From IMG/VR virus record IMGVR_UViG_3300005002_000001: DNA of 64,000 bases; one strand, given 5' to 3'. Source of the stretch: a virus. Below the pieces are notes generated by a model. It saw only the letters and a list, made by a program, of their open reading frames with translations, did not search any database and was not told the origin of the DNA. Positions 24,368 to 61,460 of the stretch are shown in pieces. Every line of letters starts with the position of its first letter. Position 1 is the stretch's first letter. Made by a program: the position numbers and the translations under genes.

Positions 24368-24898
24368 CGTCGGATCGTCGCTCTCTTTCTATTTGTGGTG
24401 GCGTTCATCGCGTGCTCTCCTAGTTGGCGTAAGCCGCCGGCTTCTTTGGCAAATTTGGATCGAGCAACGACCGTTTACGTCTGTCTCGATCTGCCCGATT
24501 CTCAGCAAAAATCGGCGGTCGAAGCCGTCGAGATGTGGGACAAGGCTGTCGGCAGCTGGAAGCATCTCGTGCCTGTCAAATCGCACGACGACTCCTTCTG
24601 CGGATTTTGGGTGCACGAGACGTCAGAGGATCATCCCAAAGATCCATCAGCGTTGGCTTGGGCCTCGATGATCGGCGGGCGAGAGATCTACATGAAGATC
24701 GGTCGCTACGAAAAGGATACGAAAGGCATCCTGACGCACGAACTGGGTCACGCCTTCGGGGCTCAGCACATCAAAGGTACGCTAATGAATAAGAACTGGG
24801 AGCCCGGCATGTTCGTTTGCCCGGACAATCCGACGGTAGCCCAGGTCGCCGCCTTTCACAACATCAACCTCGAACTGCTTAGCTGGTGCACTCCATGA
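24356..24898 (+). CDS. secreted zinc metalloprotease, metzincin type
   Basis: N-terminal signal peptide IVALFLFVVAFIACS; HELGHAFGAQH (HExxHxxGxxH) and downstream Met (TLMNK). Confidence 0.65.
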   Translation: MIMHRRIVALFLFVVAFIACSPSWRKPPASLANLDRATTVYVCLDLPDSQQKSAVEAVEMWDKAVGSWKHLVPVKSHDDSFCGFWVHETSEDHPKDPSALAWASMIGGREIYMKIGRYEKDTKGILTHELGHAFGAQHIKGTLMNKNWEPGMFVCPDNPTVAQVAAFHNINLELLSWCTP

Positions 24899-25404
24899 TC
24901 TTTTCGATCGTCTTTTTCGCGGCTTACATCGTCCTGATCACTCTCTTCGGTCACGTGGCCCATTGGGCGATGCACAAGCCGTGGATGAAGGCACTCTATC
25001 GAGCTCATATGGTGCATCACTTCAAGCTGTATCCCATTGATGATTTCGAGTCCGACAGCTATCGATCGGCCGGCAAAGATAGCGGCACGATCTTTTTCAC
25101 AGTGCTAGCGATTCCCTTGCTAGCGATTCCTATCGTCGCTTGCTTGCTGACTCCCCTCTCTCTTTTTTGGGCCATCGGTTCGATCGTCGGTGGCATCGTT
25201 TTCGGGCTGCTCAATGACTGGGTGCACGCGTCGTTCCACGTTCGTAAAAATCTTCTGCGATACATTCCCGGTTGGCAAAAGATGAGAGACCGTCATTATC
25301 AGCACCATGTCGACGTGACGGCTAACTACGGGATTTGGCTCTTTAGCTGGGATCGAGTCTTCGGCACGCTTCGCGACCAAGTACAAAAGAGCGATCCGAA
25401 GTAA
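24886..25404 (+). CDS. fatty-acid hydroxylase / sterol desaturase superfamily membrane protein
   Basis: His boxes HKPWMKALYRAHMVHH and HYQHHVD between hydrophobic segments. Confidence 0.5.
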   Translation: MHSMIFSIVFFAAYIVLITLFGHVAHWAMHKPWMKALYRAHMVHHFKLYPIDDFESDSYRSAGKDSGTIFFTVLAIPLLAIPIVACLLTPLSLFWAIGSIVGGIVFGLLNDWVHASFHVRKNLLRYIPGWQKMRDRHYQHHVDVTANYGIWLFSWDRVFGTLRDQVQKSDPK

Positions 25405-25433
25405 TATCAACCATCCCGGAAGGAGATGGTCTG

Positions 25434-25679
25434 ATGGGATACCATACCCGAGAATTCGATAAGGGCGTCTACGGAGAAGTCAGCAAAATCCAGGAGGAGT
25501 ACGAAGAGTTCCTGGACGCTGTCAAGCAGAACGCCAAGGTTTTGGAACTGTGCGAGCTAGCCGATCTTTACGGCGCCATCGCTGGATACGTCGAGCAGAA
25601 TTTTCCAGGACTCAACATGGATGACATCAAACAGATGTCGGACATGACTCGCTCGGCCTTCGAGGAAGGCAAAAGATGA
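25434..25679 (+). CDS. small MazG-like nucleotide pyrophosphohydrolase domain protein (tentative)
   Basis: 81 aa all-helical; EEYEEF / ELADLYGAIAGYVEQ acidic motifs; GGAGATGG RBS. Confidence 0.35.
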   Translation: MGYHTREFDKGVYGEVSKIQEEYEEFLDAVKQNAKVLELCELADLYGAIAGYVEQNFPGLNMDDIKQMSDMTRSAFEEGKR

Positions 25680-26281
25680 ACCAAGAGATCAGGTGGGACC
25701 TCGTCGCTGCCGCTCGATCCTGGTACACTCGGTGGGGTTACACGTACGTCGAAACGCCTTGGTACGTGGCGGGAAGGGCGCTTAGAGCGACATTACCCGA
25801 AGGCAAACACGGATTTCAGCTTTGCCATCCCGAATTATTCAAAGGGTGGCTGGTGGGATCGGCCGAGCAGGGATTCCTGCAGATGATGCTCGACGGAGAT
25901 CTCAAACCGGGCAAATACTTTTCAGCTACTCCCTGCTTTCGCGATGATCCCGAGGACGAGCTGCACAACACTTACTTCTTCAAGGTCGAGCTCATCGAGA
26001 TCGAAGATCGCCTTCAGGTGCTGGACGACGGGAATGTCTATCGACTCATGAGCGCCTGCAAGAAGTTTTTCGAGGAATACTCTCACCAAGAGGTCAAAGT
26101 GAGACCCACTCCCGAAAATGGGCCATCGACTTACGATCTAGAACTCAACGACATCGAGATCGGATCTTACGGACTTCGAAAGCACGAGAATCACAGATGG
26201 GTATATGGGACAGGGTTAGCCCTTCCGAGATTCAATTTCGCAGCAGCGAGTCGAGGTACTCCCATCTGGGATCCGAAATAG
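25676..26281 (+). CDS. minimal class-II aminoacyl-tRNA-synthetase-like catalytic core (201 aa)
   Basis: motif 1-like WGYTYVETPW, motif 2-like TPCFRDDPEDELHNTYFFKVELIEI (fRdE), motif 3-like GSYGLRKHENHRWVYGTGLALPR; no anticodon-binding domain. Confidence 0.5.
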   Translation: MNQEIRWDLVAAARSWYTRWGYTYVETPWYVAGRALRATLPEGKHGFQLCHPELFKGWLVGSAEQGFLQMMLDGDLKPGKYFSATPCFRDDPEDELHNTYFFKVELIEIEDRLQVLDDGNVYRLMSACKKFFEEYSHQEVKVRPTPENGPSTYDLELNDIEIGSYGLRKHENHRWVYGTGLALPRFNFAAASRGTPIWDPK

Positions 26282-33629: not shown

Positions 33630-33793
33630 CTAAGGTAGGAGCCCGACAAGTGATCGATGCTCTGGCGCTCAGAGTCTTCGAAATCGAAGAGATCGAAACA
33701 CGGCTTTCGATCGAAAAGCAGCAGCTAAGGGAGCGGATCCACGAGCTCGAGTGGTTCGAAGACAGTGACGTGGTGGAGTTCAATGGCGAATGA
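33626..33793 (+). CDS. small coiled-coil protein (55 aa)
   Basis: hand translation MTKVGARQVIDALALRVFEIEEIETRLSIEKQQLRERIHELEW...; ATGA at both ends. Confidence 0.4.
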   Translation: MTKVGARQVIDALALRVFEIEEIETRLSIEKQQLRERIHELEWFEDSDVVEFNGE

Positions 33794-34728
33794 AAAATCG
33801 AAACGACAAGATCCTCCTGCGAATCGCCCAGGGCGACGCCTACGCCATGGCCGTCGAGTACTGCAAGCGTACCGAGCATCCGGAACTCTTCGACGAGGTC
33901 CTCAAGTTCGAGCGCTTTCACAAGCATCCGACGCATCACAAGCTCAATCCGGGCATGTATACTGACGACACTCAGATGTCTGTTGCCGTGACGGAAGCCC
34001 TGCTGGCCGACGCGTCGGGCCTCTACTGGGACAACTACCTGACGACTGATATGTTCGCCTGGCACTTCTTCGAAGCCTTCAAGCGGGATCCCCGGGACGG
34101 CTACTCTAGAAAGTTTCAGGAGATCCTCGAGCGGTCGCGAACAGTCAACGAGCTCAAGCTCAATCTAGTGCCCGATTCGAATAAGAACGGGGCCTGCATG
34201 CGGGCCGTTCCGATCGGCGTGCTTCTCACCCCCGAGGAAGTGATCAAAGTTTGCGAGACGCAAGCCAAAGTCACTCATGATACGTTCGGAGGGATCCGGT
34301 CGGCGCAAGTCGTCGGACTCATGTCTCACTTTGCACTCTACGAATCGGCTCCTTTTTCGGATCTGCCGGGCTATGTTGCCCGTTACTTGCCGGATCTGAA
34401 TTTTCTGAGCGAACCCTGGAGGGGTGGAGTGGGTCTGCAGCATAGCGACCCGCACGGTCGCGGGATCGGTATCAACACGGCTCACGCCGTCATGACTTTG
34501 CTCATCGAGCAACCATCGTTGATGGATATCCTGCGGCAAACCATCGAATGGCGCGGCGATACCGATTCGGTGGCCGCCGTCGCTTGGGGCATCGCCTCGA
34601 CTCGGTATCCCAACGAAATCATACCCGATTTTCTCGAGCATGCGCTCGAAGCGACAGGCAATCTGAAGTACGGCCCGGACTTCCTGTTGAAATTGGGCAA
34701 GCGGTTGATGAACGAATACGACGTGTGA
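33790..34728 (+). CDS. ADP-ribosylglycohydrolase (ARH/DraG family)
   Basis: RIAQGDAYAMAVEY, MYTDDTQMSVAVTEALL, C-terminal WRGDTDSVAAVAWGIAS - both metal-binding signature regions. Confidence 0.75.
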   Translation: MKNRNDKILLRIAQGDAYAMAVEYCKRTEHPELFDEVLKFERFHKHPTHHKLNPGMYTDDTQMSVAVTEALLADASGLYWDNYLTTDMFAWHFFEAFKRDPRDGYSRKFQEILERSRTVNELKLNLVPDSNKNGACMRAVPIGVLLTPEEVIKVCETQAKVTHDTFGGIRSAQVVGLMSHFALYESAPFSDLPGYVARYLPDLNFLSEPWRGGVGLQHSDPHGRGIGINTAHAVMTLLIEQPSLMDILRQTIEWRGDTDSVAAVAWGIASTRYPNEIIPDFLEHALEATGNLKYGPDFLLKLGKRLMNEYDV

Positions 34729-42773: not shown

Positions 42774-44027
42774 ATGGGACTGAAGCAGACTTTCAAACTC
42801 GCCGTTCAGGAATATCTCGAGACCCATTCCCTCGCCGATCTGGAGAGGGAATTCGGCGTCTCGGCGCGCCTCTCGTCGAGCGGCACCAAACTGTCTCTCA
42901 ACTACGATCAGGTGGCTTCGAAGCCGGGAACGATCGTCAACCAGTGCCGCGGTCTCATCATCAGGCCGCAGACTCCTCGAGTCTTGAGCGATGATCCGGA
43001 TTACGCTTCTAAGATCTTTGGCAAGTCCAAGGTCGTGGCGTATCCCTTTAATCGTTTCTACAACTATGGTGATCACAGCGTCGAAGTGGCTGTCGATCTC
43101 AATGACGTCGAACTCCGAGTCGAGGAAAAGATCGACGGCACCCTCATCATCGTTTACCTCGATGACGTCACCAAAGAATGGTGTGTCGCGACGCGCTCGG
43201 TGGCTGAGGCCGATGTTCCTATCTCGGCGGGCGCCGTCACTCACGGCGATCTGACTTTTCGAAAGCTCTTCGATCGAGCCGTCAAGGCGACGACGGGCGT
43301 CAGCTTCAAGCAGCTGTCGGAAATGCTCGATTCGAACTTCACCTGGATGTTCGAGCTCGTCTCTAACGTCAACAAGGTCGTCGTCTCGTACGACGAGGGT
43401 ATCGTCCTTCTGGGTTGTCGTTCGATCTGGACGGGCAAGGAACAGGTCGATCCGTCCCAGTATTTCGGCATCACCGTGCCGTCGATCGCTGATATCATTC
43501 CGCGTCCCAAGGTGCACTCGTTGTCTTCTATCGAGGATATCGTCAAGTTCGTCAACGAACGCAAAGGCACGGAAGCCGAAGGCGTCGTCCTGCGCGATTC
43601 CAAATTCAATCGCGTCAAGATCAAGAATCCAGAATACGTTCTGGCTTCGAAGTCACGCGATATGCTACTGTCGTCTCGACGAAACATGATCCACTACATC
43701 CTCGCCGAGAAGATCGACGATGTCATGCCTCTTCTTGACAAAGAGACGGCGAGCGCCGTCGAAAAGGCTCGAATCGATCTGATGCACATCTTCGATTCGA
43801 TGGATCGTAACTACGATATCGCTTACAACTGTTCCGATCAGGGACGAGATCGTAAGGCCTTCGCGGGGCAGGTGATGATGCTCAAATACAATAGCAAGTG
43901 CTTTTTCGATCGGCTGATCGGGAAGTGTACTTCGGCGAAAGACTTTTACATGACGCTCGCCAAGTCCGATAAGATCAGCACGAGCAATCTCGATCACCTG
44001 GACAAGCTCATCAAGGATCTTCCTTGA
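42774..44027 (+). CDS. ATP-dependent polynucleotide (RNA) ligase, covalent nucleotidyltransferase superfamily
   Basis: motif I EEKIDGTLIIVY (KxDG), motif IV/V EAEGVVLRDSKFNRVKIKNPEY; size and architecture similar to Rnl2-type RNA ligases. Confidence 0.6.
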   Translation: MGLKQTFKLAVQEYLETHSLADLEREFGVSARLSSSGTKLSLNYDQVASKPGTIVNQCRGLIIRPQTPRVLSDDPDYASKIFGKSKVVAYPFNRFYNYGDHSVEVAVDLNDVELRVEEKIDGTLIIVYLDDVTKEWCVATRSVAEADVPISAGAVTHGDLTFRKLFDRAVKATTGVSFKQLSEMLDSNFTWMFELVSNVNKVVVSYDEGIVLLGCRSIWTGKEQVDPSQYFGITVPSIADIIPRPKVHSLSSIEDIVKFVNERKGTEAEGVVLRDSKFNRVKIKNPEYVLASKSRDMLLSSRRNMIHYILAEKIDDVMPLLDKETASAVEKARIDLMHIFDSMDRNYDIAYNCSDQGRDRKAFAGQVMMLKYNSKCFFDRLIGKCTSAKDFYMTLAKSDKISTSNLDHLDKLIKDLP

Positions 44028-47401: not shown

Positions 47402-50386
47402 TTAGGTCGTTTCTACTTCAAGCATCGCGCTCTTGACTATAGCGGCTCTATTAGAACCGGTGGGTGTACACCAGAATCTAGCTTCGATGATGCCGGATCC
47501 TGTCACCGAGCTCAGAGCGGCGGTGATCTCTCTAGAGAAATAAGTAAATGTCGTCGATGATCCCGTGACGACGGAACCTGAGATGGGCTGCGGAATTCCG
47601 TTGATGATTCCGTTGTAATCATACAGATCGGCATACGCTACTGTCGTACCCGAGACAGGAGCCAAGATCGTTCTGAAATAGAACTTCTTAGTACCAGCAG
47701 GCAATTGCGTCTGATCGAGATATGCCATTCCTAGAGATTCATTCGACCCCGATCCCTGATCTGTCGTGGCGATACCATTCATCAGATTGAATTTGTTGGA
47801 CTGAGTGACGGGTGTGCCCGAGAATTGGACTTCGAGCCAGGCACTCTTGCAGATAGCAGCGAGATCCGATCCGGTCGGCGTGCACCATAGACGAGCTTCA
47901 AAAATTCCGGAGCCCGTGACGCTCGTCAGGACGCTCGTCAGGTCCTTAGAAAAATAAGTGAATGAGGTGGAGGAACCGGTAACGATCGAGCCCTGAATTA
48001 TCTGAGGGACCCCTGAGATGATTCCGTTGTAGTCGTAGAGCTCTAGGTAAGCGACGGTCGATCCTGTCGATGGCGCCAATATCGATTTGAAATAGTAGCT
48101 TTTGGTACCGATCGGTAGCGTCGATTGATCGAAGTACGTCATACCGATAGATTCGACGGACGACGATGGCTGGGTCGTTGTGACGGTCTCGTGAGTAATT
48201 CCGTATCTCATGATACGGTTTGAACTGCCGTTGGTCGAGATGACGACGCTGCTGTTGGGACCGTTATCGACGATGGAGATGCCCGTGCCGGCCGTCAACA
48301 CTCTTTCGTTGGGCAGAGAAGACGTAGTCCCTAGAACGACGTAGGAGGCAGAAACATCGGCTCCTCCGCCCGATCCTCCGAACGATCCGGATCCGATCGT
48401 TATGGGATCGGCGATTCGAAACACAGTGACGCGACCGGTCACCATATTTTCTCCGTCTATTGGATTCGAAACGTTCCACGTGCCGGCTGTGCCGGTGTTT
48501 CTGACATATTGCAGTCTGAAGCTGCTGCCCGATATCAGAGAAATGATGCCATCTAGGCGGGCGTTGCCTGCAGCGTCTGACGCGTTGTCATATGACGTCT
48601 GCTGGATTATCGAGCCGTCCGAACCGCTGAGCCTAAAGGCGAGATATCCGGTCGACATGGCATAGTTGAAGTCCGAATGCCAGGCGTAATATCCGTCTTT
48701 GCTAACGAACCACGTCGATGCGCTTCTAGAAATACCGTTGCGAATTCGATCTTGGAATCCCGATGCGATGTTTGTGAAATCGGTCCAGGTGGTATTGTTA
48801 CCCCAGTTCAAAGACTGAGTCGTAAAACCGTCGTATATGTCAGCTGATTGAGATGATGCTCCCGTCAGACCGATAGTGACGCTGCCGCCCGGACCGCCGT
48901 CCGTGATCGCGATGCCCGTGCCAGCCGCTAGCACTCTTTCATTAGGCAGAGATGCCGTCAACGCCATGACGACGTAAGACGCGTCTCCATCTCCCGTTCC
49001 GGAGCCGCCGCCCGAACCTGAGAACGTTCCGGAAGCCGTCGAACTGATCGTGATCTGTCCGTTGGAAGCCGAAGTGATGATGATATTCGATCCGGCGACA
49101 AGATACGACTGGCCGTTCGTCAACCTCGTTAGAGATCCCGAAAGACCGGCCGTGTGATTCGTCACGCCCGAGAATGTTGAACCCGAAATAGTGGCGACGA
49201 TTCGATCGTCGATGAAGATGTTATAAGTGCCGCCGGCACCGCCATCGGTGAATTTGATGCCATTGATGGGAGCAAAGACACGTTCTGCCGTCAGCGTACC
49301 GTCAGCTGTCAATACGAGATAGGTCGCATTGATCGGTGCATCGATAGAAGAGGATGCAGCCAGGCCTGTAATCGTCACCTGTCCGTTGGAGGCCGACGTG
49401 ACCGTGATGCCGGTACCTCCGACGATGTAGGATCGACCGTCCGTCAAGCGTGTCAACGATCCTGAGAGACCCGCGGTATGAAGCGTCGCTCCAGTGAAAG
49501 TGGATCCCGAAATAGTGGCAACGACGCTGTTATTGATGGCCCACGTGACAGGACCGTTCGCGCCGCCATCGGTGACTCGAATTCCCAGGCCACCGCTGAC
49601 GAAACGCTCGTTAGTCAGCGATGCCGTCAAAGCCATGACGACGTATGACGCGCCTGGATCGGCATTCGCGCCCGAGCCTGTTGTTTGCGTGATCGACGTT
49701 ACTCGTCCTTGAGAATCGACCGTGATTTCGCTGGGATATGTGTAAGTTCCAGGAGTTCCCGTATTAGCCAGTCCTAGATTGGCGTTGGGAGACGTCGTAT
49801 CGAGCGTCAGATGTCCCGGGGTGACGGACAACACTCGAGAGTTAGAAAGACCGATTTCAGTTCCCCAAACGACATAACGAGAATTATTCGGAGCTCCGCC
49901 GCCGGCCCCTGAGGCACCGAGAGCCAGCGAGACCCAGCCTTGTCCCGTCCAAACGAACATGATTGCGCCGAAAGCGACAACGATGTTCTGAGCCGTCTGG
50001 CCGTCGATAGTCGATCCATCGGTCGTCTGAATTCGAATGGGCGTTGCGTTGCTAGCAGTTCCTCGATAATCTTTGATGATATGGGTCTGACCAGCATTAG
50101 CGGGCGGCGTGGGCAAATTGACCGTGACTTGCACTCCCGAATCATTCAGGATGAAGTACGCGATCTTGTCGTTGGTTACTCTGACATTAGCCGCATCAGC
50201 CGGACTACTGATCTGAAGAACGAACGCGTTGATATCTAGAGCGCCTCTTAGAATGAGCGCGCCTGGACTGCCTTCAAATCCGACCTGCAGATCTTTGGGC
50301 GTGACGACAGTGACAACGTCACCCTTACCGTCACGAATGACGATCTGCGGAGTCCTCTTAGCTTCTGCTACGTTGAAACTAGGCAT
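47402..50386 (-). CDS. repeat-rich fibre protein (tail-fibre-like), 994 aa
   Basis: internal ~90-aa tandem repeats (VATISGSTF(T/S)G(A/V)T(L/N)HTAGLSGSLTRLT(D/N)G...), three ASYVV(M/L)...NERV blocks, duplicated ~130-aa C-terminal domain (…YFDQSTLPIGTKSYYF… / …YLDQTQLPAGTKKFYF…). Confidence 0.6.
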   Translation of the reverse strand: MPSFNVAEAKRTPQIVIRDGKGDVVTVVTPKDLQVGFEGSPGALILRGALDINAFVLQISSPADAANVRVTNDKIAYFILNDSGVQVTVNLPTPPANAGQTHIIKDYRGTASNATPIRIQTTDGSTIDGQTAQNIVVAFGAIMFVWTGQGWVSLALGASGAGGGAPNNSRYVVWGTEIGLSNSRVLSVTPGHLTLDTTSPNANLGLANTGTPGTYTYPSEITVDSQGRVTSITQTTGSGANADPGASYVVMALTASLTNERFVSGGLGIRVTDGGANGPVTWAINNSVVATISGSTFTGATLHTAGLSGSLTRLTDGRSYIVGGTGITVTSASNGQVTITGLAASSSIDAPINATYLVLTADGTLTAERVFAPINGIKFTDGGAGGTYNIFIDDRIVATISGSTFSGVTNHTAGLSGSLTRLTNGQSYLVAGSNIIITSASNGQITISSTASGTFSGSGGGSGTGDGDASYVVMALTASLPNERVLAAGTGIAITDGGPGGSVTIGLTGASSQSADIYDGFTTQSLNWGNNTTWTDFTNIASGFQDRIRNGISRSASTWFVSKDGYYAWHSDFNYAMSTGYLAFRLSGSDGSIIQQTSYDNASDAAGNARLDGIISLISGSSFRLQYVRNTGTAGTWNVSNPIDGENMVTGRVTVFRIADPITIGSGSFGGSGGGADVSASYVVLGTTSSLPNERVLTAGTGISIVDNGPNSSVVISTNGSSNRIMRYGITHETVTTTQPSSSVESIGMTYFDQSTLPIGTKSYYFKSILAPSTGSTVAYLELYDYNGIISGVPQIIQGSIVTGSSTSFTYFSKDLTSVLTSVTGSGIFEARLWCTPTGSDLAAICKSAWLEVQFSGTPVTQSNKFNLMNGIATTDQGSGSNESLGMAYLDQTQLPAGTKKFYFRTILAPVSGTTVAYADLYDYNGIINGIPQPISGSVVTGSSTTFTYFSREITAALSSVTGSGIIEARFWCTPTGSNRAAIVKSAMLEVETT

Positions 50387-50400
50387 TTAGTCGAAGCCCG

Positions 50401-53310
50401 TTACCGGGTAAATCTCATCGAATAAATACTCGGAACGTACAGAGGCTCTTCCCTATTGCGAACAGTTCCGTCAAAGTACGGCAAAGAAGAAGTTGCCTCG
50501 AAGCTTAGGTTTGAAGAAAAAGTGTTTTCGGGTTTGATTGTAGATCCGTTGGGTCCGATGAATTTGACATTGACGGGAGCCGCCAGAACAGTGACTCCAT
50601 TGTGAAATTTGCCGTCCGGGCGCTGTTCTAGCATATCTCTGAACTGACCGTAACGATCTCGTCGGAAGACGGCCTTTGTCTGAGTTTCAAACCCATTCAA
50701 CATTCCGTATTTCCAGCCTCGAGCTATGGCTCCTCGGCTAGTTCTGTTGCTATAGCCGTAGGGCGGAGCGCCTGCATCCGAAGTTTTTGTCCTGTAAAAC
50801 GGTCGACACGTCGACCCATAGAACCCGCCAGACTGCTCTTCGCTAAAAATGTTTCGTCGGCAATTATTCCAATCTCCAGATCCGTAGAGGATTTTGATGA
50901 TGTCTTCGTACCGCAATCCAGAAAAGTTACCATTGATCGAATCGGCATGGATTCGATAGTTCTGAGCAATTCCTAGCTCAGTGTTGCCGGGTGGATACAT
51001 CTCGATAGCGATTTTCGTATCGACTGGAGAAAGCGTACTCAATCGAGTCGATCCTCCGAAGAATCCGCTAGTGTTGTATCGAGATGTCACCTTGTCTACA
51101 AGTTTAGTACGAATCAGATTAGAGTATTTGGGTTCGAATGGGAATGAACGAGTCCAATCAGTGACCGTGAAACCGATGGTGACAAAGTCAATAAAATCTA
51201 GACTGATCAACATGTCTCCGGATCCGACCACGGCGTTGTAAGGAGCACCCGAACCTTCTTTTCGAAAGATCTCATCGAATCGAGGAATCATGCTATCATA
51301 GAATTGCTCGTTATCGCTAGTGATCTGCGAGTTTCTGAAGAACTGCACGCGTTCCCAGTACTTGACTTCTTGCTCGGACAAGAAGATAGAAGGCATCGTA
51401 TTTTGAGGATCAAAATTCGTCGCGTCGGCAAGAAGCTGTCGCGACCACTGATATTCTAGACGATTTAGAAACGGAGTCGTCGTGCCCGACATGAACTGCG
51501 CTCTGGTCGATCCCGTAAACTCTTGCTGAGACCCGATGTCCCATTCATCGACTATTACATTGTGAATCGATTCATGAACTGCGTTGGTATCGAGTCGAGA
51601 ATTGAGAGTGTCATGATATTCGACTCCCTCTCTTACCATGCTACCGTACATCGTGATCTTGACAGATCCCGTATCCATCCAGATATCATGAGCCTGATTG
51701 AGGTTCATGCTTCCGTTGAAATTGAATGGAACTGTTCCGTTGACGGCGCTCTGTGAGACGCACGCTCGATACTTCGAAACAGAAAGAACGAGCTTATCAG
51801 AAGGAAACAGGATGTACGGAGATATCGCTGTCTGCTCGTAGTTGTAGAGATAGACATCGCAGTACGAACCAATTCCCTCAGGAAAGAAACGAGCAAGGGC
51901 CGAAATGCCATCACCATCGGGAACGGAAAATTCCTTGCCAAAGACGCTACGGCCAGCGGCGACTCCTCTCATCGATCGTCCGAAAGGGTTGACAGAGATA
52001 GCAAAAGAATTTCGTAACTTGTCACCTCGATTTTGGCCGTAGAGACCGTACGATCCAGGAACGCAGAAGAATCCAAGAGAGGTGACTCCGTTAGAAATTC
52101 TAGGCTCAAGTTGAAATTTCAGAGTGCCAGTGAATGTCTGATCTGACCCGGAAGATACGACGATGGCCGGTTGACCGTATGACTTGAATCCCGAAGCGAA
52201 GCGCTCGTTATAGAGAGGGCTGATGTCCTGTCCGATGAAATTGTCGTTTTCTGGGATGATGGTGGCCGATAGGATCAGATCTCTGTTGTTTCGATTGATC
52301 TGATTGATCAGACCAAAAGTGACGGCCGGACCGCCAGTGTCAAACGGATCGCCACGGTAACCGTTGATAGCGTTTAGTCTGACAAATCTCGTGTAATCTC
52401 TGAGCCATCCAGGGCCCGCCTTGATGGGCACTTCCATGATGATCTTCTCGACCATGAACGGTTGAGAGATGTAACGATTCATCTGGATGTACTGGGAAGA
52501 TGTCGCTTCGAAATTCGAATCGATCAAAGCTGACTGCGTATTGACGAGACTCAGTAGCCTTCCCATGTTGGAAAAAGCCGTGGGAATATTGTCCTGTAGA
52601 TACGAACGAGGCAGGGTCTGGTCTTCGGTCGGAGTATTCAGAATGTGACCCAACTGCAGCACATCCTGTTTAGAACTCGATAGAATGTTCGAACCCAAAT
52701 GGTTGAAAAGTCTGGTCTCCCAGAAATTCATGTTGGCCCAGGGACGGTGCCTGATGCCTGCGGCAATCTCTTCGAATCGACCTCGTTCGTTGTTCAGATA
52801 ATAGATGCTCGCAGACGAGGGCTGCATCTGCACCGCCGTCGCGACTGGAATGTCGATAGAAATTTTGGTCTTGCTATCCAGCTTCGACAAAAATCCGAGG
52901 CCGAATTCGGATAGAGAGGATCCCGTCTTGAAAAATTCTGTCGTCTTGAGATCTTGATCGTAAAGCTTGCTTTCGACGTATGGCTTGATGGCCTCAAACT
53001 GTCGAGTCGGAGTCAGCCACTGTTCGACGTCTCGAATAGCGTTGCCTGAAACGAAGATGGACGATGTCAGATTGCCGATCAGATACTTCGATCCGGACGG
53101 GATGGATGTCGGTAGAGAGACGAATTGCGGTCCCTCGGACGCGGTGCCGACCAGCTGTGTATAGACAAATGTGTCAGTGTCATCGAAGAAGATCGAGCCA
53201 GCACCCGTGCGATTCGAATCTCCCGTGCGCGCGACGGTCGGATATCGGCTGATCTGGTTATCCAGAATCCGAACTTCGAGTCGTGGGGATCTTTTCTTCT
53301 TAGAGGGCAT
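50401..53310 (-). CDS. large virion structural protein, paralogue of 53314-56193
   Basis: conserved N-terminus (...RILDNQISRYPTVARTGDSNRTGAGSIFFDDT) and C-terminus (YSSNLSFEATSSLPYFDG(T/Q)VRNREEPL). Confidence 0.55.
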   Translation of the reverse strand: MPSKKKRSPRLEVRILDNQISRYPTVARTGDSNRTGAGSIFFDDTDTFVYTQLVGTASEGPQFVSLPTSIPSGSKYLIGNLTSSIFVSGNAIRDVEQWLTPTRQFEAIKPYVESKLYDQDLKTTEFFKTGSSLSEFGLGFLSKLDSKTKISIDIPVATAVQMQPSSASIYYLNNERGRFEEIAAGIRHRPWANMNFWETRLFNHLGSNILSSSKQDVLQLGHILNTPTEDQTLPRSYLQDNIPTAFSNMGRLLSLVNTQSALIDSNFEATSSQYIQMNRYISQPFMVEKIIMEVPIKAGPGWLRDYTRFVRLNAINGYRGDPFDTGGPAVTFGLINQINRNNRDLILSATIIPENDNFIGQDISPLYNERFASGFKSYGQPAIVVSSGSDQTFTGTLKFQLEPRISNGVTSLGFFCVPGSYGLYGQNRGDKLRNSFAISVNPFGRSMRGVAAGRSVFGKEFSVPDGDGISALARFFPEGIGSYCDVYLYNYEQTAISPYILFPSDKLVLSVSKYRACVSQSAVNGTVPFNFNGSMNLNQAHDIWMDTGSVKITMYGSMVREGVEYHDTLNSRLDTNAVHESIHNVIVDEWDIGSQQEFTGSTRAQFMSGTTTPFLNRLEYQWSRQLLADATNFDPQNTMPSIFLSEQEVKYWERVQFFRNSQITSDNEQFYDSMIPRFDEIFRKEGSGAPYNAVVGSGDMLISLDFIDFVTIGFTVTDWTRSFPFEPKYSNLIRTKLVDKVTSRYNTSGFFGGSTRLSTLSPVDTKIAIEMYPPGNTELGIAQNYRIHADSINGNFSGLRYEDIIKILYGSGDWNNCRRNIFSEEQSGGFYGSTCRPFYRTKTSDAGAPPYGYSNRTSRGAIARGWKYGMLNGFETQTKAVFRRDRYGQFRDMLEQRPDGKFHNGVTVLAAPVNVKFIGPNGSTIKPENTFSSNLSFEATSSLPYFDGTVRNREEPLYVPSIYSMRFTR

Positions 53311-53313
53311 CTG

Positions 53314-56193
53314 TCATCCCATGTACTGGAATTGCTGAATATTCGTGAAGCTGAGAGGTTCTTCTCTATTTCTAACCTGTCCGTCGAAAAACGGCAAGGA
53401 AGATGTGGCTTCGAAGCTCAAATTGGAAGAGTACGTCTCTTCGGGACGGACTCGACTACCTGATGAATTGAGGAATTTTACGTTGACGACGGCCGAGCCG
53501 GCGAATGATAGATTCTTTTTTGTCGACAGGAGTCGACGACCGATTCTCTCTGCTTCATCGACCGTTTGAAAGAATTTCGTATCTTGTCGCTGCTCGAGCA
53601 TGTCTCGATACTGCCCGTATTTATCTCTTCGGTAGATTCCTTTGGAGTACTGGGGCAGTGCGTTGACGAGTCCGTATTTCCATCCTCTGATCTCGGCGCC
53701 TGCGTAGCTGTTCGTGAAAACATTTTCGATCATCAAGGGCCGATCGGTCGCGCCGAACGTCTTGGATCCCGCTCGATAGCAATTATTAAATTGACCGATG
53801 CCATAAAGAAGCTTCAGGGCTACTTCGTTTCGAAGTCCGACTCTCTGAGCTCCTGGATCGACCTGGTCGATACCGATGTTGTGAATGTTGTTTCCAACTC
53901 CTACTTTGATGACCATGTTGTCATTCATGTCGAAATAACGACCGTAGTAGGAAAAGAAGGAAAAGAAGTTCAATAGAAAGCGAGCAAAAAACTTCTGTGT
54001 CGTAGCTCGTAGGACAGTGCCGTATCTAGGTTCGAACGGGAAGGATCGGCTCCAATCGTTAGAAGAGTGATCTAGATAGATGCTCGAATACTGATTTGAG
54101 TCGAGGTTGACAGTGATGACGTTTCGAGGACCGGTACCGAACAAAAGCCAGGCGTAAAGACGTGTGAAATATCGACCCCTTCGTAAGATTTCGTCGAGCG
54201 GCGGAACGAGACTGTCATAGAATCTTTCTGTAACGGAATTAGCTTCAGCATATCTCCTGAATGACACGAGATGATAGATAAAGCGTCGGCGATCGCTGAC
54301 TCGATCGGCAAACGTCAGACGAGCATTAGCATTGCTATCCAGAGATGACCTCCAACGCGCTCGGCCCGCATTGTTATTGGCAAAGATGCTACCAGAGACG
54401 TAATCGGTGATGTATGTATCGCGAAGCTCGTCTTTGTAGAAGACGTCATATTCATCGTAAATCGGATCGCCTCCGATGATTTCGTGAACAGCAGCCGATG
54501 TACCGTTCGGATTGTGACCGTCGTTGCTTTCGATGCCCTCACGAAGAAGAGAACCGAAGAGTGTGATGTTGATCTTTCCCTCGAGGACCACGAAATCGTG
54601 AGATCCGGTCGGAGCTCCGAGCGAAGTATACGTGCCGTTGACGGAAATCATCGGACGATGCTTAGAAAGAGTCAACATCAAGCTATCTTTGGGATAGATG
54701 ATGTACGGGCTCGGCACATTAGAATCGAAGGACCAGATTTCGGGATAATCTCCAGCGATGCCGGTGCCGGGCGTACCAAAAAGCTTTTTGTTGTTGGATT
54801 CGATGTTGAATGTCGAAATTTGTGGCGTCGTAAATTCCTTGCCGAAGATCGATCGTCCGCAAGGATCGATCGTCGAACCTCGTCCGTAAGGATCGACAGA
54901 TCCGATGTAGCTCTCTTTGAATTCGGTCGCTGTCCACTGACGGCCGGCGGCCGGCGGAGCGCCGTAGCTGATTAGGCTATTTCTGACGTTAGCCGTGCCG
55001 GGAACGACGATGGTTCCCGTAAACTTTCCATCCGCATTGGGCTCGATCGCGGTCGAGGCTCTTCCAAAACTTCGGAAGCCGTACATAGCTCTGTATGTGT
55101 TGCCTCCCGAAATGAAATTCATCGTACCCGAGATGTCGTCGCCGGCTGGGATGACAGTGGCAGACATGATCAGATCTCGCTTGCCGCTATTGTTTGTACC
55201 GAGCAAAGCAAACGTGACACATGGACCGCCTGCATCAGGCACATTATCAAACGGACCGTTGGGCATCATTTGAGTGCGATCGTTGAACCAACCGGTACCC
55301 GCCCTCAGAGGAAATTCGATGACAGCCTTTTCGATGACAAATGGATGGTTGATGTAACGATCCATTCGAATCAGATTATTGGGAGTCGGGGCGTAACGTG
55401 GATCTGTCAAAACAGAAGCGGTATTGTTTTGCCACTGAAATGCGTCGTTTAAAGACGTTTTGACTTTCGATACGTCTTTGACTCCGTAGAAAGGGACGTT
55501 GGCAGCGCCGGACAGCAAAAAGTTGCCAAACGGTCCGAACATCTTAGCGTCCATGTTGGGATATGTCGTCGCCAGGCTGGCGTTATCGGTCGCCGGTCCT
55601 TCGGCGGTCGTAGCTACTCCTTGAAGGATTCCGTTGTCTCCGTCGACAACATTGCTACGCCAATAGTAAACGCTAGCTCGATTGCCAGGAATCGTCTGGG
55701 GTCCGACGTTGTTTAGCCTGATTCGAACAGCAATTTTGGATTTGAGCTTAGATTGCAGACCAAAACCGACATGCTCAACAGCTGTGCCCGTCAAGAAAAA
55801 ATCCGAATTGTCTTCGATCTGTTCGTGCAGACCGTCTTCTCTAAAGGGTCCCGGAGCTTCAGAAAAGATGGGAAGATTGTTGATCGTCCCGACCGAGCTT
55901 TTGACAGTCTTGCCAAAAGTAACGATAGAGCTTGTGAAGTCAGTGGCTTGATGCAGCTTAGATCCGACTGTCAGCGTCGAGGGCCAGGAGATGCTAGAAG
56001 ACGCCTGCGAACCGCTCGAACCCGACGGGACGTAATACGATGGATCGTAGAGGACAGTCGTCGTATCGTCGAAGAAGATCGATTGATTGCCCTTCCTCGT
56101 CGGGTCTCCCGTTCTCAGGATGCTCGGATATGTTCCGGGACGATCGTCCTGGCGGCGTATCTCGATTCTGGGTAATTGCTTCCTTTGAGACAT
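53314..56193 (-). CDS. large virion structural protein, paralogue of 50401-53310
   Basis: see 50401. Confidence 0.55.
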   Translation of the reverse strand: MSQRKQLPRIEIRRQDDRPGTYPSILRTGDPTRKGNQSIFFDDTTTVLYDPSYYVPSGSSGSQASSSISWPSTLTVGSKLHQATDFTSSIVTFGKTVKSSVGTINNLPIFSEAPGPFREDGLHEQIEDNSDFFLTGTAVEHVGFGLQSKLKSKIAVRIRLNNVGPQTIPGNRASVYYWRSNVVDGDNGILQGVATTAEGPATDNASLATTYPNMDAKMFGPFGNFLLSGAANVPFYGVKDVSKVKTSLNDAFQWQNNTASVLTDPRYAPTPNNLIRMDRYINHPFVIEKAVIEFPLRAGTGWFNDRTQMMPNGPFDNVPDAGGPCVTFALLGTNNSGKRDLIMSATVIPAGDDISGTMNFISGGNTYRAMYGFRSFGRASTAIEPNADGKFTGTIVVPGTANVRNSLISYGAPPAAGRQWTATEFKESYIGSVDPYGRGSTIDPCGRSIFGKEFTTPQISTFNIESNNKKLFGTPGTGIAGDYPEIWSFDSNVPSPYIIYPKDSLMLTLSKHRPMISVNGTYTSLGAPTGSHDFVVLEGKINITLFGSLLREGIESNDGHNPNGTSAAVHEIIGGDPIYDEYDVFYKDELRDTYITDYVSGSIFANNNAGRARWRSSLDSNANARLTFADRVSDRRRFIYHLVSFRRYAEANSVTERFYDSLVPPLDEILRRGRYFTRLYAWLLFGTGPRNVITVNLDSNQYSSIYLDHSSNDWSRSFPFEPRYGTVLRATTQKFFARFLLNFFSFFSYYGRYFDMNDNMVIKVGVGNNIHNIGIDQVDPGAQRVGLRNEVALKLLYGIGQFNNCYRAGSKTFGATDRPLMIENVFTNSYAGAEIRGWKYGLVNALPQYSKGIYRRDKYGQYRDMLEQRQDTKFFQTVDEAERIGRRLLSTKKNLSFAGSAVVNVKFLNSSGSRVRPEETYSSNLSFEATSSLPFFDGQVRNREEPLSFTNIQQFQYMG

Positions 56194-56238
56194 CTCTGAC
56201 GGATATAATCTACACTAAGTACGCCATCATGAAAGCTC

Positions 56239-57090
56239 TCAGTCAGCAGGAGGACGAGATACGCTGCTAGAAATGTAGTAATAGCCTCCGAAGGCGATCG
56301 AGTCAGTACCTTCGGAAGTGTCAAACGAGAAACCAGACGGCATCGATTTCTTATTTGTGGGAACGTAATTGTCCTGGCGGGATCCCAAAGACAACACTTT
56401 GGATCGAAAATCGGAGTCCATGTTGGTCGATGCGAGACTGCCCGAAGCTATCGGATTGTCAGACCACGGGACGATTCGGTTGGGCGTCAGATCGACGACG
56501 CCCGGAAGAGTCACGTTTCCGATCGAGCCGACTTGATCGAGAAACGCGGCTTCGTTGGGTCGAGAGTTCAATTCATAAACGGAGACGATTTGGTCGTTTC
56601 GGCCGTCGGTGATATCATTGCCATCGGCCAGACGAACGAATATATTCCTCGATTCTTTGAAATCCTCTGTTTCGTAGAGGCTAGCTCTAGCCTTGATAAC
56701 GATAGGTTCCAATACTCCGTCCATGGCGAAAGCAAAGGATGTCGGAGGATTTCGATTGACTCTAAGAAACGTCGATTCGCATGATCGAAGAGCGCCGTCT
56801 GTGACGGGATTCGATCGAAGATAGGTGTCAGGCCCGTAGGTATCGAGGTCATAATACCAGTTCTCGTCGACTAGCGGCGCGCGGGACTGACCAAATTTGT
56901 TTTGAATGAGCTGATGCTCTGGGAAGCCCGAATGAATCTTGACGGCTCCCATAAAATAGAAATTGCCTCTGAGTTCGACTCCTTGTCGAAATTGATCGGT
57001 CAACTGCAGATCGCTGCCCGATACGACATGGGCTTGTCGATAGTTGATCTGCACGACAGACGAGTCATTGAAGGGAGGAACGGAAGGCAT
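56239..57090 (-). CDS. structural protein, paralogue of 57090-57977
   Basis: shared blocks (TFGQS, FRQG(V/I)EL, DSIAFGG). Confidence 0.5.
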   Translation of the reverse strand: MPSVPPFNDSSVVQINYRQAHVVSGSDLQLTDQFRQGVELRGNFYFMGAVKIHSGFPEHQLIQNKFGQSRAPLVDENWYYDLDTYGPDTYLRSNPVTDGALRSCESTFLRVNRNPPTSFAFAMDGVLEPIVIKARASLYETEDFKESRNIFVRLADGNDITDGRNDQIVSVYELNSRPNEAAFLDQVGSIGNVTLPGVVDLTPNRIVPWSDNPIASGSLASTNMDSDFRSKVLSLGSRQDNYVPTNKKSMPSGFSFDTSEGTDSIAFGGYYYISSSVSRPPAD

Positions 57091-57977
57091 CAGACTTCGA
57101 TCTCCTCAGCGATTTGGATCGGAGACGCCGACATACCACCGAAGGCGATCGAATCGGTGCCAAACCTGCTAAAATCGTGGACAAATCCCGAAGTCATGAC
57201 GATCTGATCGGACGACGCATAACTGTCTTCTGGAGGAGACATGCTACGTAACGCGTCTATCATCTGACCGCTCATATTCACACTCAGTTTAATTCCCGTC
57301 GACAGCTTATTGTCTCTTACCGGTCCGGTGAAAGCAATTTCTGGGCTAACGTAGCCTTCGATGACGGCGCCTCCGCCTTCGGCTGTGTCGACCGAGTCGA
57401 AGTAATTGATGGCCGAATGTTCGTCAGCCGGTGTGTATTTGTTGACGATCTGATCGTGAGCCAGCAAGTAGTTGACGTTACCTTCTAAAAAGGCCGCTTT
57501 GATATCGTGAGCGAAGAAAGGAATATCGATAGAGTAATTGTTGGATTTCTCTCTGAGGGCGAACGGCTCTAGAGCTCCATCTCCATTTAGAAACTCATAT
57601 CGATCGATGTCTCCGACAATGACGGGAAACGTATTTTCGTACGTTCGAAGCAGCGTTTCCTGCGAAATGTGGTGATCCCACTGGACGTAAGTGACAGGAT
57701 TCCAGTTGTCGACTTCTTCGAAACGAGGATAGGGAGACACTCTGATCTTGGATTGACCGAAAGTGCACTGCTTGACTTCGTGTTCGTCTTCCCCCGAATG
57801 AATCTTGACAGTGCCCTCGTAGTAATAACGAGGCATGGTCAGCTCTATGCCTTGCCTAAAGCGGTCGAAGGACGTAGTGTCGGTACCGTCAGCGTAAGAA
57901 ATTTCGACGTCAGTCCAATGCGTTTTATTGGGCTTCGTATCGTTGAATGGCTTGACGGAGTTGGGGTTTAGAGACAT
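57090..57977 (-). CDS. structural protein, paralogue of 56239-57090
   Basis: see 56239. Confidence 0.5.
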   Translation of the reverse strand: MSLNPNSVKPFNDTKPNKTHWTDVEISYADGTDTTSFDRFRQGIELTMPRYYYEGTVKIHSGEDEHEVKQCTFGQSKIRVSPYPRFEEVDNWNPVTYVQWDHHISQETLLRTYENTFPVIVGDIDRYEFLNGDGALEPFALREKSNNYSIDIPFFAHDIKAAFLEGNVNYLLAHDQIVNKYTPADEHSAINYFDSVDTAEGGGAVIEGYVSPEIAFTGPVRDNKLSTGIKLSVNMSGQMIDALRSMSPPEDSYASSDQIVMTSGFVHDFSRFGTDSIAFGGMSASPIQIAEEIEV

Positions 57978-57980
57978 CGA

Positions 57981-60900: not shown

Positions 60901-61460
60901 AAGACGACTTGATCGCCGTTGCCCTGCGGCGGGACATAGATCTGCATTTCGATCGTCCAGGAAAGATCCCCAGGATCGATGACGGGTGTACCTGATTTGA
61001 CTTTCGACAGTTCAGGATAAACTCCACCGGCGTAATCACGAACAGAGATGCTTGTTCCGTTGGCACCGTTTTCTCCTGTCGCTGTGCCCGAGAAAAAGAG
61101 GTAACCTGTGTTCTTCGGGAAACGATCAAAGACCCACTTTTCGAACCCAGATAGGCCCTCAAAAAATTTTTCGTATTCCCGTCTGGTACCATCAAACGGA
61201 AAGCCGTTGATTATTCTGTCAAAGGCTACGTTGACATTTACTTCGGCCGAGTTGAAGAATGTGTGATTTTCGAACCTAGACCAATCGAGATTGACCTGCT
61301 GAGTCGATTTGAGTCCGACTCCTGGGACATCGTAAAAGAACGAACTCGTACTTTCAAAGTTGGAGTCAGAAGTCTGCTCGAGATTCGAGCGGATCGATCT
61401 AGCACCATCGATAATGGTTTGGATGAAGCTAGGAGTGAATCTCGAAGGCGTGTCTGCCAT
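57981..61460 (-). CDS. very large virion structural protein (1159 aa; baseplate/tail candidate)
   Basis: track ORF in structural operon; no assignable motif. Confidence 0.5.
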   Translation of the reverse strand: MADTPSRFTPSFIQTIIDGARSIRSNLEQTSDSNFESTSSFFYDVPGVGLKSTQQVNLDWSRFENHTFFNSAEVNVNVAFDRIINGFPFDGTRREYEKFFEGLSGFEKWVFDRFPKNTGYLFFSGTATGENGANGTSISVRDYAGGVYPELSKVKSGTPVIDPGDLSWTIEMQIYVPPQGNGDQVVFQRISGTNVGYTYFLNSTGSSTVTNSTFVVQSGSYFMSASVPLTKGRFNHVALTYDKDGRFHRLRTFLESEGSMDSTTSVVMGPLTTVGTMLTIGSGSTFNIGVASVSPDQTFSGALDEFRFFHSTRSESKQAAYAQKTIYASDDLKLYFKFNEPSGALSDDTNDSVNRIVLDSSGHSLHSHIDNGFSFSLRSTGSIPNPMTLERADLSPILFTSYGDVAELNVELLSSATQYDADNPNLITRLVPKHYLVDGQAFDGFETQQGLIGEEYESNSIPGSGKLGNVQLMLTFLYIWAKFFDELKIFVDAFSKLHFVDYSTDDTSPDQFIPQMYKSLGFNMPPLFLDASIEQYVSPENVEFNISRGAEPLKSVQNQILRRILVSMGSIIRSKGTQRSIKSFMRAVGIDPDNSFRIREFGGPTARSLTYAREEKIEPGIWLSGTTHAYLVTPFLSSSRFEPGFPEPRGIFRDKELYHPHGISDDVQDGALTSGSWTYEATYKYPLNIKLTSNTQSLGRMEVTGALSSSGGITFNLIAISGSGIFEPHSVVLYGRPSAGPNSPVLKLTVPADVFDGDRWNISFGRKRGDEFESKVYASSSYFLRAGKDSLGTEYHESTAWFREIGSYAGGEPGVNNSLDGEIDTILNASGTCIKIGTGSVITGADAGYLYLNNTTAVTESAAHRTIFEGHINQIRFWSKALSNAEWKEHTKNYKSIGVEDPLTNFNFSNANSGSFGKLRMDISMRQPTKTTDPDGRIIFFDFSQHNLHATGSNWGSSTNPFAVDIFRFSTISPYFDEASTNEKIRIRSYQDFDKVQETPWAEVAPVYRINPSERPTDNTRFSIEFSLVDALNRDMINIFATLDSLDNVIGNPELIFSPDYPGLEYLRDIYFNRLTDKLNFKSFFEFFRWFEQSIGMFIDQLIPRKTKYFGTNFVIESHMLERPKFELLGNDIYLGENDRYRFRDTLLLQQIAGIIKKY

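Follow-up and report, generated by a model that had tools for sequence, protein, structure and literature searches.

A near-obligate gene pair of large phages joins a predicted minimal SerRS-like core to a HisE/MazG-type partner

We identify a near-obligate module of two genes, in some loci joined into a single polypeptide, in which a protein resembling a trimmed seryl-tRNA synthetase (SerRS) catalytic core accompanies a small protein that is predicted to be an NTP pyrophosphohydrolase of the HisE/MazG type. This partnership is the main new result of the analysis, and the pair probably acts as one functional unit, either as a complex or, in some lineages, as a fused polypeptide. Both proteins appear to retain intact active sites. 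We favour, at a probability of roughly 35%, a tRNA-independent ligase that adenylates an amino acid and has a nucleotide intermediate in common with the pyrophosphatase.

Partnership of the two genes

In the window, by which we mean the whole 64-kb stretch of viral DNA analysed, an 81-aa open reading frame encoding the HisE/MazG-type, all-alpha NTP pyrophosphohydrolase-like partner (25434..25679, plus strand; phrog_6408) is followed by a 201-aa frame encoding the putative trimmed SerRS-type class-II aminoacyl-tRNA synthetase (aaRS) catalytic core (25676..26281, plus strand; phrog_4806). The two genes are coupled by an ATGA start/stop overlap at 25676..25679 (plus strand), and the 201-aa product and its overlapping upstream neighbour were found exactly as the original prediction had described them. 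A Shine-Dalgarno-like AAGGAG lies 8 nt 5′ of the 81-aa frame (25420..25425, plus strand), and a second Shine-Dalgarno-like element, GAGGAAGG, lies 5′ of the start of the 201-aa frame (25662-25669). A promoter and terminator scan around the pair yielded counts no higher than those in shuffled sequence.

We retrieved related loci with conserved peptide patterns, a procedure that under-samples divergent members. Family HMMs were run on 114 loci, of which one is the window, 6 come from annotated phages, 80 are IMG/VR contigs and 27 are contigs from genomes or metagenome-assembled genomes (MAGs). The HMM finds the partner in 110 of the 114 loci, on the same strand as the core in every case. It lies immediately upstream in 54 of these, upstream with a gap in 34 and downstream in 9, and in the other 13 the two are fused in the order core, then small domain. 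One apparent absence (locus L012) proved to be an artefact of ORF calling, the partner being recovered by tblastn, which brings the corrected presence to 111 of 114; at another (L104) the locus is cut by the end of the contig. The fused form is exemplified by gp131 of the Microcystis phage Ma-LMM01, a 266-aa protein in which residues 1-189 form the core and residues 190-266 the small domain.

The same pairing is seen in phage records searched by tblastn, where the core is detected in 276 and the small protein in 278. The numbers for core and small protein run closely parallel from genus to genus: Escherichia 112 and 113, Acinetobacter 61 and 59, Caulobacter 13 and 13, Pectobacterium 10 and 10, Cronobacter 8 and 8, Microcystis 8 and 8, and Brevundimonas 7 and 7. 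Clustering of all open reading frames within 5 kb of the module revealed no third conserved gene family.

Active sites of the two proteins

The 201-aa protein passes the Pfam cut-offs for tRNA-synt_2 (32 bits, cut-off 25) and tRNA-synt_2d (28.5 bits, cut-off 19.8) and matches the phrog_4806 profile over residues 2-189 (2.5e-42). Conservation was scored on an alignment of 54 homologues that share 41-93% identity, from which an AlphaFold2 model was also computed (pLDDT 94.4, pTM 0.90); the predicted fold is the antiparallel beta-sheet fold of class II. All three class-II motifs that had been proposed (WGYTYVETP; TPCFRDDPEDE...FFKVELIEI; GSYGLRKH...YGTGLALPR) are present in the translation, and the class-II motif residues P28, R89, F101, E105, G178, G180 and R185, which include the motif-2 and motif-3 arginines (R89 and R185, both invariant), are invariant or nearly so. 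The structural reading as a minimal class-II aaRS-like core without accessory domains is thereby upheld, as is the claim that AsnA (330 aa) and EpmA (325 aa) are far larger than the core.

The alignment assigns the conserved positions to discrete elements, all on the plus strand. The motif 1 region, W20-W29 (WGYTYVETPW, 25733..25762), aligns with the motif-1 region of SerRS; Y24 and W29 are invariant and P28 nearly so. The invariant stretch G61-S62-A63-E64-Q65 (25856..25870) aligns with the SerRS 'PTAEV' (TxE) amino-acid-binding motif, and P41 and L59 complete the invariant positions of the N-terminal part. Motif 2 spans T85-I107 (TPCFRDDPEDELHNTYFFKVELI, 25928..25996), with P86-C87, R89, F101, K103 and E105-L106 invariant and H97 nearly so. 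A strand-turn-strand segment, Y153-R168 (YDLELNDIEIGSYGLR, 26132..26179), is equivalent on comparison with SerRS to 'YDLEV...REISSCS'; D154, G163, S164 and G166 are invariant within it, and E161 and R168 nearly so. Motif 3, Y177-F186 (YGTGLALPRF, 26204..26233), has the spacing of SerRS 'NGSGLAVGR' and contains invariant G178, T179, G180, A182, P184 and R185; W175 just ahead of it is likewise invariant. Pfam scores above threshold, the fold and the residue invariance together rule out a chance resemblance of motifs. A gene fragment or pseudogene is ruled out as well, since nearly all of the 120 listed homologues are 180-200 aa long and the model is compact and confident. Judged by these residues, the 201-aa protein is a putatively catalytically intact class-II core.

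Among class-II enzymes, the core is specifically SerRS-like rather than AsnA-, EpmA- or HisZ-like. Compared with reference enzymes from E. coli K-12 and locus L089, the family HMM scores 30.7 and 19.0 bits against SerRS, 10.3 against AspRS and 5.1 against EpmA, and does not match AsnA, so that the core is not placed among AsnA proteins. The family profile aligns G-S-A-E-Q with SerRS 'PTAEV', PCFRDD with 'PCFRSE' and FFKVEL with 'QFDKVEM', and in a direct comparison the window segment 'STYDLELN--DIEIGSYG...YGTGLALPR' matches the E. coli SerRS segment that ends in 'NGSGLAVGR'; the C-terminal equivalences (YDLE, E-I-x-S, G-[ST]-G-L-A-x-x-R) were found by eye. The core thus carries the SerRS active-site signatures TxE, PCFRsE, F-KVE, YDLE, E-I-S-S and G-S/T-G-L-A-x-x-R with conservative departures, namely S62 for T and D90-D91 for S-E. 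A weak profile match had raised a class-IIb (AspRS/AsnA) affinity for the C-terminal half; we dropped this reading because of the direct comparison with E. coli SerRS (YDLE, E-I-x-S, motif-3 spacing) and the HMM scores.

No curated SerRS threshold is reached, no SerRS model appearing in the NCBIfam output for the core. Its best NCBIfam models are pheS, genX and aspS, all far below their cut-offs; genX, the EpmA model, scores 18.7 bits against a cut-off of 286.9, which does not make the core an EpmA protein, and the invariance of its catalytic residues sets it apart from HisZ. The labels 'histidyl tRNA synthetase' and 'seryl-tRNA synthetase' both fail the membership tests. We find no N-terminal coiled-coil tRNA arm: motif 1 stands at the very start of the core, and Pfam gives no Seryl_tRNA_N match. 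Compared with SerRS, the profile alignment shows the motif-2 loop to be shortened by 7 residues; the loop is strongly acidic, its net charge lying between -3 and -5 in 47 of the 54 members. The only conserved basic residues of the core among the 54 homologues are the catalytic R89, K103, R168 and R185, and both proteins are acidic (median pI 5.7 for the core, 4.8 for the small protein). The core is thus best described as a SerRS catalytic domain trimmed to ~190 residues, in which the motif-2 loop and the inserts between strands are all shortened. Matched motif by motif, E105 and T179 correspond to residues that contact the serine hydroxyl in Thermus SerRS structures, and on account of this match serine or another small amino acid is a reasonable guess for the substrate.

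The 81-aa partner passes the Pfam PRA-PH cut-off (22.8 bits, cut-off 21.3), has the HisE domain model as its sole NCBIfam match and matches the phrog_6408 profile over residues 1-81 (2.8e-33). Metagenomic and phage homologues share the invariant residues G2-Y3-H4, K18, E21, E22, E25, A29, E41, D44, A48, F76 and R81, among which the full superfamily signature K-x-x-E-E-x-x-E ... E-x-x-D is present. Its first half, K18-x-x-E21-E22-x-x-E25 (25485..25508), and its second, E41-x-x-D44 (25554..25565), together the metal/triphosphate-binding signature of MazG/HisE proteins, are invariant throughout the alignment, so that the 'MazG-like' label first given to this neighbour is supported by the PRA-PH score and by these six residues. 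The N-terminal G-Y-H (25437..25445), which in fused forms lies a few residues past the core domain, and the C-terminal Arg are family-specific extras; the three alignment features lie on the plus strand. In the AlphaFold2 model (pLDDT 94.5) an extended N-terminal tail precedes three helices, and the metal-binding signature E-E-x-x-E ... E-x-x-D is carried on the helical bundle. The 81-aa protein is thus predicted to be a catalytically intact HisE/MazG-type NTP pyrophosphohydrolase. Its fold and signature, together with the absence of a conserved Ser (S17 is not conserved among phage versions), rule out a carrier protein of the kind that serves amino acid:carrier-protein ligases. The small protein has ~845 representatives at 50% clustering; longer relatives (316-741 aa) were considered as Rosetta-stone hints and discarded, their extensions being low-complexity by eye and devoid of a core domain by HMM.

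Distribution, annotation and neighbourhood

The core family has 892 detectable homologues in a collection of 5.8 billion proteins. Its carriers are large phages of many unrelated lineages, including Phapecoctavirus, phi92/Justusliebigvirus, Certrevirus, T4-like phages of Acinetobacter and Morganella, the phiCbK-like Colossusvirus and Bertelyvirus, jumbo phages of Brevundimonas, Xanthomonas and Stenotrophomonas, and Ma-LMM01. Among 185,579 species genomes only 27 loci were found, many of them probably on mis-binned phage contigs. Clearly chromosomal copies occur in two groups of CPR bacteria. On a 798-kb Saccharibacteria contig, fusA on one side and rpsG-rpsL-rpoC on the other flank an island in which the pair adjoins wHTH-Nudix and AAA_28 kinase-like genes, and this layout recurs in a second Saccharibacteria genome; on a 905-kb Woesebacteria contig the fused form stands beside NrdR and a radical-SAM gene. 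DPANN archaea possibly carry the module too, as judged from MAG contigs only.

Both families are catalogued in PHROGs, 4806 as 'histidyl tRNA synthetase' and 6408 as 'unknown', and the module combines a stand-alone class-II paralogue with an obligate partner that is new. GenBank labels for the core are inconsistent (seryl or histidyl tRNA synthetase, RNA polymerase alpha-CTD protein, hypothetical protein), and one phage paper names it simply SerRS (PMC8953757). A full-text literature search, which covered comparative papers on jumbo and huge phages, returned neither functional or biochemical work on any member nor a recognition of the pair. The labels 'histidyl tRNA synthetase', 'seryl-tRNA synthetase' and 'RNA polymerase alpha CTD protein' are misleading and inflate counts of phage synthetases. 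One homologue (P0003) carries a precomputed Pfam accession, PF27744.1. The original prediction had missed the near-obligate partnership, the SerRS-like character of the core and the fact that the families are already catalogued and very widespread.

Genomic context was counted over 66 dereplicated groups, which are not independent lineages. The distance from the module to a tRNA gene is at most 200 nt in 7 of the 66 groups; the number rises to 10 at 500 nt and to 22 at 8 kb. As a rough expectation, a random position in a phage genome of 150-400 kb would have a tRNA gene within 8 kb in under 10% of cases. The tRNA genes often abut the module directly and co-directionally, and no single tRNA species is consistently adjacent. 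Other neighbours are also linked to RNA: phi92 has a YqeY/GatB-like gene near the module and CR3 the RNA-repair nucleotidyltransferase RlaP, a canonical SerRS (PF02403 + PF00587) lies ~900 nt upstream of the fused module at L089, and the window itself encodes an RNA ligase of the T4 Rnl1 type. In the Colossusvirus CcrPW the core is fused to a helix-hairpin-helix domain like that of the RNA polymerase alpha-CTD, which suggests contact with nucleic acid.

Nucleotide metabolism is represented as well. In Morganella phage MP1 the module is flanked by frd and td, and in phi92 and phAPEC8 it adjoins NrdD/NrdG; glutaredoxin genes are found 3-4 kb or less from it in XacN1, and KARL-1 has a thioredoxin gene ~1.2 kb downstream of it. 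In 7 of the 66 groups, all metagenomic and essentially one syntenic lineage, it is accompanied by ribonucleotide reductase alpha/beta, glutaredoxin, a dNMP-kinase-like gene and a second MazG. Proximity to tRNA genes is at least as frequent as nucleotide-metabolism neighbours, and neither the tRNA/RNA nor the nucleotide signal is decisive. Neighbours of the nucleotide type occur in several independent lineages (MP1, phi92/phAPEC8, Woesebacteria, Saccharibacteria) and speak for a nucleotide-directed function; those of the RNA type (the YqeY/GatB-like gene of phi92, RlaP of CR3, SerRS at L089, the helix-hairpin-helix domain of Colossusvirus) speak against it. A defence or anti-defence identity was dropped, PADLOC returning no more than a single weak match.

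Candidate activities and related systems

In the favoured mechanism, the core would bind ATP and a small alpha-amino acid and form an aminoacyl-adenylate, in keeping with pocket residues that match the serine pocket of SerRS. The aminoacyl group would then pass to a small nucleotide-type acceptor, without charging tRNA for translation. The pyrophosphatase would act on the same nucleotide, either by making an NMP acceptor from the NTP or, alternatively, by turning a triphosphate product into the monophosphate and thereby pulling the reaction forward. We prefer a tRNA-independent activity because the tRNA-binding elements are lost, the motif-2 loop is short and acidic, the conserved basic residues are all catalytic and both proteins are acidic; the missing tRNA-binding elements and the short, acidic loop likewise lead us to propose a small nucleotide rather than tRNA as the acceptor. 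The chemistries of both active sites break the alpha-beta bond of an NTP, and two co-inherited, sometimes fused proteins with intact sites would plausibly act on one nucleotide-linked intermediate in common. The choice of amino acid and acceptor and the sequence of steps are proposals, serine being suggested by motif equivalence and by SerRS structures. The carrier phages are not known to share an amino-acid-modified nucleotide, nor is a modified base known for them.

The main rival, a tRNA-directed role in which the mini-core charges, modifies or repairs tRNA at its 3′ CCA end or at a nucleoside and the pyrophosphatase is accessory, would account for the tRNA genes near the module, for the YqeY/GatB-like, RlaP, SerRS and alpha-CTD-like neighbours, for the Rnl1-type ligase in the window and for the complete SerRS-type active site. 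We nevertheless consider it rather unlikely, since the core has neither a tRNA-binding arm nor an anticodon-binding domain, the loop with which SerRS contacts the acceptor stem is shortened and strongly acidic, and conserved basic residues are absent outside the catalytic motifs. It is not obvious what an NTP pyrophosphatase that is strictly required would do in charging; moreover, the 64-kb window contains no tRNA gene, no tRNA species is consistently adjacent, and it may simply be that tRNA arrays and accessory genes accumulate at the same genomic hot spots. Considering both acceptor types jointly, we regard the following as possible though doubtful: a two-enzyme system, common to large phages and ultra-small CPR bacteria and based on the smallest class-II synthetase core known in nature (180-200 aa), that either makes an aminoacylated or adenylate-derived nucleotide, as metabolite or messenger, or is a free-standing minimal synthetase acting on tRNA ends without a tRNA-binding domain, comparable as a natural enzyme to the engineered aaRS 'urzymes'.

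Ap4A is classically synthesized by class-II aaRSs, and the core might make a dinucleoside polyphosphate of the Ap4A type, or another adenylate-derived signal, that the MazG-like partner hydrolyses, in the manner of Rel/SpoT, GGDEF-EAL or toxSAS-hydrolase toxin-antitoxin pairs. Two intact active sites in paired or fused proteins, both with a chemistry that cuts the NTP alpha-beta bond, fit such a maker and breaker; so do the resemblance to type II toxin-antitoxin modules (a small acidic upstream protein and a larger downstream enzyme, encoded by overlapping genes) and the patchy occurrence over unrelated phages and in the Saccharibacteria island between rpsG and fusA. This is improbable, as PADLOC gives no match of note, no sensor or effector gene is conserved nearby, and a constitutively fused, unregulated maker and breaker would be futile. 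Aminoacylation of a protein, similar to that of EF-P by EpmA and already suggested in the original prediction, would place the amino acid either on a host protein or on the small partner, for instance at its G-Y-H tail or K18. The partner, however, retains the full catalytic MazG/HisE signature, which an acceptor does not need, and K18 fits the usual HisE K-x-x-E-E pattern; the EpmA model lies far below its cut-off, and the module also resides in Saccharibacteria and Woesebacteria chromosomes. A chromosomal module in which both active sites are intact suggests two enzymes that form a self-contained activity, not a modifier of host proteins peculiar to phages, and we rate this alternative as quite improbable. 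Very unlikely is a non-catalytic core that, like HisZ with HisG or the HisRS domain of GCN2, senses a ligand and switches the pyrophosphatase according to the level of amino acid or ATP, because the core keeps residues that pseudo-enzymes of the HisZ type usually lose (R89 and R185 invariant, E161/S164 conserved).

Comparison with known systems delimits the favoured tRNA-independent ligase. The SerRS catalytic domain comprises ~250 aa against ~190 in the phage core; SerRS has an N-terminal coiled-coil tRNA arm, whereas the core has none and carries the shorter, acidic motif-2 loop, reaches no SerRS equivalog threshold and requires a MazG/HisE-like partner. Relative to the SerRS-like amino acid:carrier-protein ligases (Bll0957, PDB 3mey) the core is ~100 aa shorter, and in place of their carrier it is joined by a MazG/HisE fold with an NTP-pyrophosphatase signature and no conserved phosphopantetheine Ser. 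AsnA, EpmA (GenX/PoxA) and HisZ are, like the phage core, class-II cores without anticodon-binding domains, and all three work without tRNA; AsnA also shares a short, acidic motif-2 loop with the core at the sequence level. GluQRS (YadB), a truncated class-I GluRS paralogue, glutamylates queuosine in tRNA-Asp. It likewise has no anticodon-binding domain and uses an aminoacyl-adenylate on a non-canonical acceptor, which provides a precedent for a tRNA-modifying role, but it belongs to the other aaRS class and has no pyrophosphatase partner.

An all-alpha NTP pyrophosphohydrolase works together with an enzyme that modifies the same nucleotide in MazZ-PurZ of Z-genome phages, in T4 gp56-gp42 and in HisG-HisE, and PurZ ligates an amino acid to a nucleotide. 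In functional logic these pairs are the closest parallel to the module, in which an NTP pyrophosphatase may either supply a nucleotide-modifying ligase or draw its reaction forward. The likeness is functional only: MazZ-PurZ and T4 gp56-gp42 employ adenylosuccinate-synthetase and thymidylate-synthase folds, whereas the putative ligase here has a class-II aaRS fold.

AsnA, EpmA, HisZ and the amino acid:carrier-protein ligases each showed unexpected aminoacyl-adenylate chemistry outside translation, and the present family is smaller than all of them yet retains every catalytic residue. The identity of its substrate would define a new metabolic or RNA-directed activity of phages and CPR bacteria and, once found, make the module a natural test case for the minimum size of a working class-II active site. 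The family occurs in hundreds of cultured phages, including tractable phages of E. coli, Acinetobacter and Caulobacter.

Genes surrounding the pair in the window

The genes immediately 5′ of the pair (window 22595-25404) are encoded on the plus strand, co-oriented with it. Within this interval we found a 2OG-Fe(II) oxygenase (PF13532, 3.5e-23), an HExxH metalloprotease-like protein (24356-24898) and a fatty-acid-hydroxylase-family membrane protein (PF04116, 2e-12), and the order of these genes recurs on further metagenome contigs that encode the identical protein. Farther along the same strand, an ADP-ribosylglycohydrolase-like protein is encoded at 33790-34728 (phrog_6572, 1.6e-17). An RNA ligase of the T4 Rnl1/gp63 type, an enzyme of the tRNA-repair type, is encoded on the plus strand at 42774-44027, at a distance of ~16 kb from the module (phrog_562, 4.3e-39; PF09511, 2.7e-17). 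No tRNA genes were detected across the entire 64,000-nt window.

Neighbours and variants of the module in related loci

In one of the scanned loci (L089, 3810-6804), whose contig carries the label Nanoarchaeota, the core and the small protein are fused, and a canonical 431-aa SerRS (PF02403 and PF00587) lies ~900 nt upstream of the fused module. The tRNA arrays that flank the module in two metagenomic phages each contain a 'tRNA-Pyl' predicted by ARAGORN (L020, 1980-2053; L022, 891-961), and both calls have a CUA anticodon of the amber-suppressor type. In two Saccharibacteria genomes (L110, 4268-5699; L112, 3732-5598), the module adjoins genes for a wHTH-Nudix protein and for a NadR-like kinase of the AAA_28 type; in L110, the entire island is flanked by fusA and rpsG.

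The module itself also varies. At L068 (7983-9233), a single small-protein gene is followed by two tandem core paralogues of 195 and 216 aa. Lineage-specific additions to the module proteins were observed in gp446 of Caulobacter phage CcrPW (L001, 3743-4597) and in the homologues P0129, P0130, P0134 and P0137: the Colossusvirus core carries an RNAP alpha-CTD-like domain fused at its N-terminus (PF03118, 8e-6), and some small proteins bear zinc-ribbon-like CxxC...CxxC tails.

Base composition and large ORFs of the window

Along the window (1-64000), the GC content declines steadily from left to right, starting at 0.64 and reaching 0.455. Located in the GC-rich part (~0.60) is a plus-strand ORF of 882 aa (15937-18585) with similarity to Major Vault Protein domains, in which a match to MVP_shoulder (PF11978, 7.9e-30) is accompanied by matches to Vault_3 (4e-8), Band_7/SPFH (2.6e-6) and the Vault repeat (3.6e-5). 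MVP-like proteins are unusual for a phage-like contig.

On the minus strand, the interval 47402-61460 is taken up by four successive, very large ORFs of 994, 969, 959 and 1159 aa. PHROG matches were absent from the three ORFs scanned (all except 50401-53310), and the first two ORFs of the run are not paralogous. Pfam matched the run at a single point, through a Laminin_G_3 domain of the last ORF. The four ORFs probably encode a novel type of tail-fibre or structural protein.
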